A stretch of 63,208 bases of DNA, taken from a virus. The notes beneath the pieces were generated by a model. That model was given only the letters and a program-made list of their open reading frames with translations. It made no database searches and was not told the origin of the DNA. A program made the position numbers and the translations under genes. Below, piece after piece: positions 39,700 to 40,746 of the stretch (positions are counted from its first letter, which is position 1; each line of letters opens with the position of its first letter). The stretch lies in IMG/VR virus record IMGVR_UViG_3300016457_001358, positions 1 through 63,208 of that record, one strand, 5' to 3'.

Positions 39700-40746
39700 A
39701 TGAATATAAGTTTAAAGGAGGCAAATAAATTAACGCAACACCCCGCATTCTACAGGAAAGTTAAAGGCAATTTGGTTATGTTCAGTTACCATTTCGCCGA
39801 CCCGACGGTATACAGCAAGAACAGTATTGCCAGGGAGTTGAGAGGGATAGTGTTTGACGCAGAGACCGGCGAAATAGTGGCGAGGCCGTTCCCCAAGTTC
39901 TTCAATCTCGGGGAGCGGAACTGCTCAGTATCGGAAAGCGATTTCATTGTAACTAATGAAAAAATAGACGGGTCGCTGATATTTGCGTTCGTTTATGGCA
40001 GTAACATAGTATTGGCGTCTAAGGGGTCCTTTGATTCGGATGTGGTCGTTAAAGCTAGGCAGGTTATAAACAGCAATCATAAGCGGTTAATCAAGGATTT
40101 GTACGGGCGAGGTTATACAGTTATGTTTGAACTGGTCGATGCAAGCAATCCCATCGTAGTTCAGTATCCCGATACGGAGTTAATTCTCGTGGGGGCGAGA
40201 AAAAACAGCGACGGAAGCATGATGACGCCAAAGGAGATATTATGTCTGGGGAAAAAATACGGCGTCAAATGCAGTAATATTAAGTATCAGGGTGCGGCAA
40301 AAACCATTAGAGACAAAATAAGCGGTTTGGAAGGCGTTGAAGGGGTGGTTGGATACAAAAATCCATACGAAATTTGCAAAATTAAAACGCCGTGGTATTT
40401 GCGGCTTCACAAGTTTAATCCTTTCGGCCTCACGGACAAGGGCATAAAAGAGGCGTTCTTCAACCAGGAACTGGATGATATTTATCCCAATCTGTCAGCA
40501 ACGGCAAAGGCGAGAGTTGATAAAATAGTGAATCAAATAACCCAAAGAATTAAACATAAAAGCGAAAAGGTCAGGGAATTTTTGGAGAAACATAGCGACA
40601 TCAGCGACAGAAAGGAGTTCGCAGAAATATTGAGAAAAGAGGTGGAGAACGCGAGGGAACATTGGATATACTTCCAGGTTAAATTTAATGGTAAATATAT
40701 TGAAAGGGTAGTGTTTGATTACTTGAAAAAGGCGTTTTGCTCGTAG
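39700..40746 (+). CDS. ATP-dependent RNA ligase-like nucleotidyltransferase
   Basis: Motif I KIDGSL, motif IV EGVEGVVGYK, motif V CKIKTPWY. Confidence 0.65.
   Translation: MNISLKEANKLTQHPAFYRKVKGNLVMFSYHFADPTVYSKNSIARELRGIVFDAETGEIVARPFPKFFNLGERNCSVSESDFIVTNEKIDGSLIFAFVYGSNIVLASKGSFDSDVVVKARQVINSNHKRLIKDLYGRGYTVMFELVDASNPIVVQYPDTELILVGARKNSDGSMMTPKEILCLGKKYGVKCSNIKYQGAAKTIRDKISGLEGVEGVVGYKNPYEICKIKTPWYLRLHKFNPFGLTDKGIKEAFFNQELDDIYPNLSATAKARVDKIVNQITQRIKHKSEKVREFLEKHSDISDRKEFAEILRKEVENAREHWIYFQVKFNGKYIERVVFDYLKKAFCS

Follow-up and report, generated by a model that had tools for sequence, protein, structure and literature searches.

The window analysed here is the whole of the IMG/VR virus record IMGVR_UViG_3300016457_001358, a stretch of 63,208 nucleotides (nt) from an uncultured virus, and its gene at 39700..40746 on the plus strand encodes an RNA ligase of the T4 Rnl1 family. 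Judged by its conserved residues, the ligase is catalytically competent and apparently active. The gene lies in the rightward non-structural block of the complete genome of a tailed virus, the host of which is most likely an archaeon and not a bacterium. We assign a probability of about 0.6 to the reading that it is an accessory counter-defence gene, the product of which seals breaks in RNA, probably tRNA.

Identity, active site and fold of the ligase

The open reading frame (ORF) starts at an ATG, ends at a stop codon and occupies exactly 39700..40746, giving a product of 348 amino acids (aa). Its parts, together with the region ahead of it, are as follows.

39700..40746, plus strand: Rnl1-family ATP-dependent RNA ligase gene, 348 aa and stop codon (from the ORF, profiles and fold)
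39700..40419, plus strand: nucleotidyltransferase (adenylyltransferase) domain, aa 1-240 (from the alignment with T4 Rnl1)
39961..39978, plus strand: motif I, KIDGSL, aa 88-93; K88 corresponds to T4 K99 and is the predicted AMP-accepting lysine
40339..40353, plus strand: motif IV, EGVVG; E214-G215 correspond to T4 E227-G228
40378..40386, plus strand: motif V, KIK; K227 and K229 correspond to T4 K240 and K242
40420..40743, plus strand: all-helical C-terminal domain, aa 241-348, homologous to the C-domain of T4 Rnl1
39526..39699, plus strand: upstream intergenic region of 174 nt (sequence reading), putative promoter and leader of the ligase gene

Three profile collections place the product in the same family. 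Pfam PF09511 (RNA_lig_T4_1) matches aa 47-233 with 84.2 bits against a gathering score of 28.3 (E = 1.6e-23), PHROG 562 matches across aa 17-346 (E = 9.9e-69), and NCBIfam TIGR02308 ('T4 RnlA family') matches with E = 7.6e-38, the alignment reaching profile position 349 of 373. The Pfam scan of the ligase returned no match to the Rnl2 family (PF09414), to DNA_ligase_A_M (PF01068) or to a capping-enzyme family. When the sequences of the PDB were searched, the significant matches were only three entries, all of T4 Rnl1, with E values of about 1e-22 (best 1.4e-22).

The T4 genes rnlA and pseT were taken from NC_000866, and rnlA was aligned with the window ligase and 17 homologues. Residues R48, K66, F68, K88, D90 and G91 of the window ligase align to T4 R54, K75, F77, K99, D101 and G102, and residues K108, E144, E214, G215, K227 and K229 align to T4 K119, E159, E227, G228, K240 and K242. 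The window ligase thus keeps all twelve of these catalytic residues of T4 Rnl1 (12/12), which we take to be the ones found essential in the mutational studies of the Shuman laboratory. In an alignment of 68 sequences, R48, G49, K88, D90, G91, E144, K227 and K229 are invariant, and the C-domain blocks DD(I/L) and RK(E/T)(F/Y)A align with those of T4 Rnl1. The first-pass annotation of this DNA had read KIDGSL, EGVEGVVGYK and CKIKTPWY as motifs I, IV and V of an ATP-dependent RNA ligase; all three strings are present and align with the respective motifs of T4 Rnl1, CKIKTPWY at aa 226-233 and EGVEGVVGYK at aa 211-220, where the true motif IV is the second 'EG' of the string.

The AlphaFold2 (AF2) model of the ligase, built on the 68-sequence alignment, has a predicted local distance difference test (pLDDT) score of 95.2 and a predicted template modelling (pTM) score of 0.89, with helices at aa 246-347. 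The model was compared with the PDB using Foldseek. T4 Rnl1 (2c5u) matched with E = 2e-20 and a template modelling (TM) score of 0.81 over 369 aligned columns, the helical C-terminal domain included. The other matches were fungal Trl1 ligase domains (E about 1e-11, TM about 0.55), archaeal Rnl3 (E about 1e-10, TM about 0.48), Naegleria Rnl5 (E about 1e-7 to 1e-6, TM about 0.40), T4 Rnl2 (E about 3e-6, TM 0.35) and DNA ligases (E at least 4e-4, TM at most 0.36). Membership of the Rnl2 or Rnl3 family was rejected on these TM scores, set against 0.81 to Rnl1, and on the lack of a PF09414 match. A DNA ligase or capping enzyme was rejected as well: the C-terminal domain is helical and not an OB fold, there is no match to PF01068, PF01331 or similar families, and the motif I lysine, K88, is intact. 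The prediction of an ATP-dependent RNA ligase is therefore borne out by the profile, PDB and AF2/Foldseek searches alike.

The upstream region contains an AT-rich, TATA-like stretch at about 39540-39590 and, ahead of the ATG, a GGTG sequence resembling a Shine-Dalgarno site; GGTG-type sites precede 35 of the 111 ORFs of the window. Short ORFs of 51-117 aa on the opposite strand, inside the ligase coordinates, find matches in other loci only in places where the ligase gene is itself conserved. They were treated as shadow ORFs.

The carrier genome

The window begins and ends with the same 91 nt (1-91 = 63118-63208). This terminal overlap shows that the contig is closed and that the genome, of about 63.1 kb, is complete, either circular or terminally redundant; the ParB-like ORF at 40-936 probably starts across the end junction. 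An identical ligase protein is found on 17 contigs from several samples. The source is hydrothermal (deep-sea vent) sediment; the sample prefix 'SPET22-1' and the BioProject number PRJNA713414 indicate the Auka vent sediments of the Pescadero Basin (PMC9213671) as its probable origin. All ORFs were scanned against Pfam and PHROG as concatemers, and matches to 'Serglycin' in these scans were set aside as artefacts of the GS linkers. The genes and gene blocks to which the following sections refer are these.

10.9-27 kb, minus strand: tail and baseplate genes (structural block)
27268-32253, minus strand: 1661-aa multidomain ('polyvalent') protein adjoining the portal gene (domain matches)
32103-33380, minus strand: portal, an ORF of 425 aa, the counterpart of which in the locus L001 has a Portal_Mu match
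33629-35149, minus strand: terminase large subunit (Pfam and PHROG; structural block)
6144-7724, plus strand: divergent Ro60-like protein, 526 aa, with a helical N-terminal region and a VWA domain (weak VWA_CoxE and VWA matches)
42132-44562, plus strand: trio of Amidoligase_2 (weak), GATase_6 and RimK-like ATP-grasp genes, preceded by an ORF of 149 aa at 41670-42119
46377-47096, plus strand: PCNA (profile scans)
inside 52168-53301, plus strand: RNase HII (profile scans)
54491-54564, plus strand: tRNA-Met (CAU) (ARAGORN; Rfam 55.1 bits)

The plus-strand, non-structural blocks hold the ParB-like protein, an N6/N4 methylase, a winged-helix and metallophosphoesterase protein, a VWA protein and the ligase, and further the amidoligase/GATase/ATP-grasp trio, PCNA, an AAA+ ATPase, RNase HII and the single tRNA-Met. 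A megablast search of the region 36-48 kb against GenBank phages gave no match, and the terminase large subunit has only seven matches, all of them distant.

The host

The archaeal host is proposed because several genes have archaeal affinities. All eight PCNA matches among 50,697 phage records (8/8) are to haloarchaeal tailed viruses, and the nearest named cellular homologue of the protein is in a Thermofilum metagenome-assembled genome (MAG). The putative capsid protein matches best the major capsid protein of an Altiarchaeum virus. The protein encoded at 4158-5066 (plus strand) is a winged-helix domain of the ArsR/PF0610 type fused to a calcineurin-like metallophosphoesterase, the best PDB matches of which are the small subunits (DP1) of archaeal DNA polymerase D (E = 2e-5); DP1 is specific to archaea. 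DNA-binding domains of the TrmB/PF0610 type occur in the window, and the tRNA-Met has, as read from its sequence, an A1:U72 acceptor pair, which is typical of archaeal and eukaryal initiator tRNAs.

Promoter evidence leaves the host domain unsettled, since the scans were uninformative: archaeal TATA boxes upstream of the genes gave five matches against 3.7 +/- 1.8 in shuffles, which is not significant, sigma-70-like sites are mildly above shuffles, and terminators are not enriched. The IVYWREL fraction of the proteome, 0.397, suggests, as a crude estimate, a roughly mesophilic and not a hyperthermophilic host. A scan of GTDB genomes returned only a viral fragment, L012, and bacterial homologues of at most 36% identity; no provirus or spacer link to a host was found.

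A small subclade and its relatives

An exhaustive HMMER search with the ligase returned 9,694 cluster representatives at E <= 1e-3, of which 24 reach E <= 1e-30. About 20 representatives score at E < 1e-38, whereas the bulk of the family lies near 1e-25; this gap places the window ligase, on sequence scores, in a small, distinct and divergent subclade found only in metagenomes. Identity to the window ligase is at most about 32% among GenBank phage ligases, at most 35% among those of IMG/VR and at most 36% in GTDB genomes other than L012. The nearest cellular relatives are homologues in Aquificota, at about 30% identity; they lie among housekeeping genes (HisA/F, DapB) and have no Pnkp.

L012 is a contig from the Guaymas Basin that had been binned as a 'Chlamydiae' MAG. 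Its ligase is 76% identical to that of the window, its terminase fragment is 94.5% identical and its gene order is the same; because of this fragment and gene order, L012 is a piece of a related virus and not chlamydial DNA. Between the two ligase orthologues the non-synonymous divergence (dN) is 0.165 and the synonymous divergence (dS) about 1.8, whereas the terminase is far less diverged (dN 0.027, dS 0.49). Synonymous divergence is about 0.5 for the terminase and about 1.1-1.8 for the ligase and amidoligase genes. The ligase gene is accessory and, in a region that diverges fast, is kept under purifying selection. Since the terminase has diverged so much less, the history of the accessory region differs from that of the structural module or has run faster, which suggests mosaic ancestry or recombination in the accessory block.

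Proposed function

For the substrate, the timing, the biological role and the source of end-healing, we infer the following. By homology with T4 Rnl1, K88 would react with ATP to form a ligase-AMP intermediate, the AMP would pass to a 5'-phosphate RNA end, and a 3'-OH end would then attack so that the break is sealed. The C-terminal domain gives T4 Rnl1 its preference for broken tRNA anticodon loops, and conservation of this helical domain suggests, by analogy, a stem-loop or tRNA-like substrate for the window ligase. The enzyme would reseal host or viral tRNA, or another structured RNA, broken during infection, and would in this way counter RNA-cleaving defences or toxins of the host. A combination of Rnl1 or Rnl2 with kinases, phosphoesterases, Ro/TROVE proteins and phage tRNAs has been described from jumbo-phage genomes as an anti-RNase repair kit (PMC7824862).

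The best contextual hint that tRNA is the substrate comes from the locus L173, since a second tRNA-acting enzyme stands beside the ligase there. At 1355-2800 of this contig, a subclade ligase (33-35% identical to that of the window) is followed after 15 nt by PTH2 (E = 7e-33), a peptidyl-tRNA hydrolase of archaeal/eukaryal type. The contig has a GC content of 28%, looks cellular and carries McrBC, UvrD and AAA_14 genes nearby; the Rnl1-PTH2 pair was seen in this one locus, and other loci were not searched for it. In the window itself, the tRNA-Met could be a substrate of the ligase or a spare part. With its A1:U72 acceptor pair and just two G:C pairs at the foot of the anticodon stem, it partly resembles archaeal/eukaryal initiator tRNAs, and it may be of initiator, elongator or Ile2 type.

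Several observations weigh against this reading. The first concerns the ligase itself. Its TIGR02308 score of 130.6 bits falls short of the equivalog cut-off of 242.25, and for this reason functional equivalence to T4 RnlA, as far as profile scores indicate it, is not assured. Furthermore, no gene partner is common to all subclade ligases among the loci compared.

The second and more serious concerns the end-healing partner. An iterated hidden Markov model (HMM) built from T4 PseT was used to search all ORFs of the fetched Rnl1 loci with 10-kb flanks. Outside the subclade, Pnkp occurs within these flanks in 80 of 160 Rnl1 loci (28/80 from genomes and 52/80 from IMG/VR); the median gap between Rnl1 and Pnkp is 186 nt, and of the 93 Pnkp copies 60 share the strand of the ligase gene at a distance of at most 500 nt. 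The subclade was represented by nine distinct loci (the window with L001-L006, L007-L010, L012 and L172-L174), and none of them yielded a Pnkp (0/9). For the window this search covered the whole complete genome; most of the other subclade contigs are short (4-25 kb), and in every locus except the window a Pnkp may be located beyond the contig ends. Within the window, tblastn with T4 PseT reached a best E of 0.07, a search for HAD_PNKP gave no match, and the Pfam and PHROG scans of all ORFs gave no kinase or phosphatase match as a Pnkp partner. The complete genome thus lacks a recognised Pnkp, HAD phosphatase, 2H phosphoesterase, RtcA/RtcB, RlaP or polynucleotide kinase, in agreement with the first-pass annotation, which had noted no kinase/phosphatase partner.

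Candidates for a diverged partner were sought by motif scans for Walker A, DxDxT and HxT across the ORFs of the window. The only convincing Walker A protein besides the terminase is encoded at 51641-52543, the three further pattern matches lying in small or tail-block ORFs. As a polynucleotide kinase it was rejected: the sole sign was a faint APS-kinase match (E = 0.12), and its AF2 model (pLDDT 85) is an AAA+ fold with lid and winged helix that best matches RuvB and ORC/Cdc6 subunits. Judging from the model, this only convincing spare P-loop protein is a replication-type AAA+ ATPase and not a kinase. A DxDG motif in the ORF 49451-49846 is a chance match without HAD similarity. The metallophosphoesterase at 4158-5066 was rejected as an end-healer as well, resembling the DNA-acting DP1 and not the lambda or CthPnkp phosphatases; since calcineurin-like enzymes occasionally act as RNA 3'-phosphatases in jumbo phages (PMC7824862), such an activity is a minor possibility.

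Because neither Pnkp nor another end-healing enzyme was recognised, the canonical T4 repair pathway is incomplete in this genome. The first-pass annotation had invoked the phage story in which tRNAs cut by host anticodon nucleases are repaired; the identity of the enzyme stands, while repair of such cuts remains an analogy, as the T4 pathway requires Pnkp, which is absent here, and the host is most likely archaeal. With no recognisable viral 5'-kinase/3'-phosphatase, break sealing would need one of three arrangements: host enzymes may convert 5'-OH/2',3'-cyclic phosphate ends, an unrecognised viral protein may heal them, or no healing may be needed where the breaks already carry 5'-phosphate and 3'-OH ends, as from metal-dependent nucleases. 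End-healing genes do circulate in the wider virus group, as a 56-kb viral contig, L175, indicates. Its only tie to the window is the AAA+ ATPase (46% identity), and it encodes at 13311-13745 a stand-alone Pnkp-type HAD phosphatase (HAD_PNKP, E = 3e-31), a counterpart of which was not found in the window; no Rnl1 was present in the 16.6 kb of L175 examined.

Alternative explanations

The third of these arrangements can be taken as an explanation in its own right, namely that the enzyme directly seals breaks with 5'-phosphate and 3'-OH ends left by metal-dependent RNases of the host, for instance toxins of the PIN/VapC type, independently of Pnkp and as a property of the subclade. We regard this as unlikely, purely inferential as it is. 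In its favour, Pnkp is missing from all nine subclade loci and the complete genome and present in 50% of other Rnl1 loci. ATP-dependent ligases require exactly such ends, and only metal-independent RNases leave ends that need healing (PMC7824862). The virus also has its own tRNA-Met, and the L173 ligase is paired with PTH2 and not with an end-healing enzyme. Nevertheless, the short subclade contigs could each have a Pnkp beyond their ends, and the Aquificota homologues, in their housekeeping contexts, also lack an adjacent Pnkp, so that healing may come in trans.

A role in RNA processing is similarly improbable; here the substrates would be non-coding RNAs of virus or host that the ligase circularises or joins, perhaps in concert with the Ro60-like protein. 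Such substrates would need no Pnkp. The first-pass annotation's Ro60-like protein is plausible, as its gene encodes a VWA domain and the product matches the TROVE+vWA_Ro60 protein of L009 in BLASTP (E = 3e-7, aa 21-346) and phmmer (E = 8e-4); it is nonetheless divergent. In L009 a bona fide TROVE+vWA_Ro60 gene lies 3 kb upstream of the ligase, and Asgard 'Nidhogg' viruses have Ro60 and an RNA ligase (bioRxiv 10.1101/2021.07.29.454249). In Thermococcus, an archaeal Rnl circularises C/D-box sRNAs (PMC9014305). That circularising ligase, however, is an Rnl3, a different family with a TM score of only about 0.48 here, and in the window 33 kb separate the Ro60-like gene from the ligase. An Rfam scan at gathering and E <= 1 thresholds found only the tRNA, with no Y RNA or other structured RNA. 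Elsewhere, moreover, Rnl1-Pnkp operons are a signature of repair. TROVE/Ro60 genes are also found near Rnl1 in the bacterial loci L056, L062, L064 and L075, sometimes with Pnkp, which agrees with the published view of Ro/TROVE proteins in RNA-repair kits (PMC7824862).

A structural role in virion assembly, like that of T4 gp63 in tail-fibre attachment, with ligase activity secondary or lost, is very unlikely. It is prompted by the annotation of PHROG 562, 'RNA ligase and tail fiber protein attachment catalyst', but this wording is inherited from T4, and the profile scans revealed no T4-type long tail fibres. All catalytic residues are kept under purifying selection, and the gene stands in a non-structural block, far from the tail genes on the opposite strand. 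Finally, that a DNA ligase or mRNA-capping-type nucleotidyltransferase has been misread as an RNA ligase is hardly credible: covalent nucleotidyltransferase motifs I, III, IV and V are common to both, but the ORF matches neither family in Pfam, DNA ligases appear in Foldseek only with the poor scores given above, and the 1661-aa protein already provides the virus with a DNA ligase domain (PF01068).

Neighbouring genes and other features

The first-pass annotation had placed the gene next to a ligase/amidotransferase module. The adjacency is real; the trio includes a class-II glutamine amidotransferase (GATase_6, E = 6e-15) and an ATP-grasp protein with the PHROG annotation 'ribosomal protein S6 glutaminyl transferase'. 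A functional link is unsupported, because the adjacency is conserved only in the close relative L012, where the module is 75-86% identical, and is not seen in distant subclade members. The element had also been called unusually rich in RNA-processing functions, with a tRNA, a Ro60-like protein and two RNase H genes beside the ligase. This is overstated: there are one ligase, one tRNA (the tRNA-Met, as predicted), one divergent Ro60-like protein and one RNase HII, which probably serves replication more than RNA processing, while the second RNase H signal stems from the terminase, namely from its nuclease domain.

A small Cys-rich protein is encoded downstream of the ligase (41066-41458), and a weak homologue lies downstream of the L009 ligase; in L174 a HAD-family hydrolase is found 3 kb from the ligase. 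Just upstream of the window ligase, a 31-nt repeat (38789-38819 and 39166-39196, 94% identical) stands at the starts of two small ORFs and appears to encode a common MERFCRKCGKII-like CxxC N-terminus. From their sequence, these may be paralogous small zinc-ribbon proteins. Further upstream, the stretch 37360-38080 holds an AT-rich cassette of about 47 nt (TTTATATT-type box ... TTTTAAAAGCG) in three copies spaced about 310 nt apart, each preceding a small ORF. The copies are located where the leftward structural block gives way to the rightward non-structural one, in a region of 29% GC, and could be repeated early promoters and/or a replication origin.

The AAA+ ATPase at 51641-52543 (plus strand) has only five homologues among 5.8 billion proteins. 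Its probable role is to initiate replication, or to act as a loader alongside the PCNA and RNase HII of the virus. The 1661-aa protein comprises a metallo-beta-lactamase fold domain (aa 93-268; the L001 copy has a weak precomputed match to anti-Pycsar Apyc1), followed by a D12 adenine methylase of the Dam type (aa 322-544) and, with E = 2e-24, a domain of ATP-dependent DNA ligases (aa 1083-1271). Possibly it counters host defences after delivery by the virion, and by virtue of its ligase domain the virus has two different ATP-dependent ligases. At the 3' end of the terminase gene, a 30-nt tandem duplication (33639-33698, two copies, 93% matching) doubles the C-terminal peptide KTLNTKAI.

Comparison with known systems

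T4 Rnl1 (RnlA/gp63; PDB 2c5u, 5tt6) shares with the window ligase its two-domain architecture, its motifs, the twelve catalytic residues and the fold over the full length (TM 0.81). Nevertheless, there are differences. The window ligase is only 23-33% identical to it, is 26 aa shorter and scores below the NCBIfam equivalog cut-off. In T4, pseT lies about 1.4 kb from rnlA, whereas the window genome has no Pnkp, and the host of T4 is bacterial while that of the window virus is probably archaeal. The T4-type Rnl1 and Pnkp repair system as a whole is thus not present in this genome. The Rnl1-Pnkp operons of bacteria and phages, which make up the bulk of PF09511, have a ligase of the same family (about 25-35% identity) and differ in the Pnkp that stands at a median of 186 nt from it, against 0/9 in the window subclade.

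Among archaeal viruses, the closest in setting are the Nidhogg viruses, which are likewise uncultured, tailed and archaeal, come from hydrothermal sediment of the Gulf of California and have Ro60 (TROVE+vWA) together with an RNA ligase, the family of which is not stated (bioRxiv 10.1101/2021.07.29.454249). Their PolB, PrimPol and E1-like proteins are absent from the window, and the Ro60-like protein of the window is very divergent. HGTV-1 is an archaeal caudovirus that also combines tRNA genes with RNA ligases, but these are two Rnl2-family ligases and RtcB, not Rnl1 (PMC8651126), and cultured archaeal tailed viruses have been reported with Rnl2 and RtcB ligases (PMC8651126). Our search of the literature found no paper that combines Rnl1 with archaeal viruses and no Rnl1/anticodon-nuclease system described for archaea, and the virome papers on Thermococcales and ANME-1 do not mention an RNA ligase. 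The fungal Trl1 ligase domain (PDB 6n0t, 6n67) belongs to the same Rnl1 clade of nucleotidyltransferases and is the second-best structural match. It is more distant (TM about 0.55) and depends on a 2'-phosphate; in Trl1 it also forms one chain with kinase and cyclic phosphodiesterase domains, whereas the window ligase is unfused.

Significance

As a textbook phage enzyme and an everyday laboratory tool, Rnl1 is an ordinary find by itself; the unusual part is the carrier. A T4-type RNA ligase is now placed in the complete genome of a tailed virus that is most likely archaeal, and the absence of Pnkp across its subclade raises the question of who heals the RNA ends and what RNA damage archaeal viruses face. 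For enzymology, the subclade also offers divergent single-strand RNA ligases of vent origin, although the composition of the proteome suggests that this one is mesophilic and not hyperthermophilic. A broader proposal, which we regard as unlikely, is that this Rnl1 subclade is specific to archaea and their viruses and operates with no dedicated Pnkp. It would either directly reseal tRNA breaks with 5'-phosphate and 3'-OH ends, left by metal-dependent host nucleases (PIN/VapC-type toxins are abundant in archaea), or recruit end-healers of the host. If true, no earlier RNA-repair counter-defence would be on record for an archaeal virus, and the existence in archaea of an antiviral defence that targets tRNA would follow.

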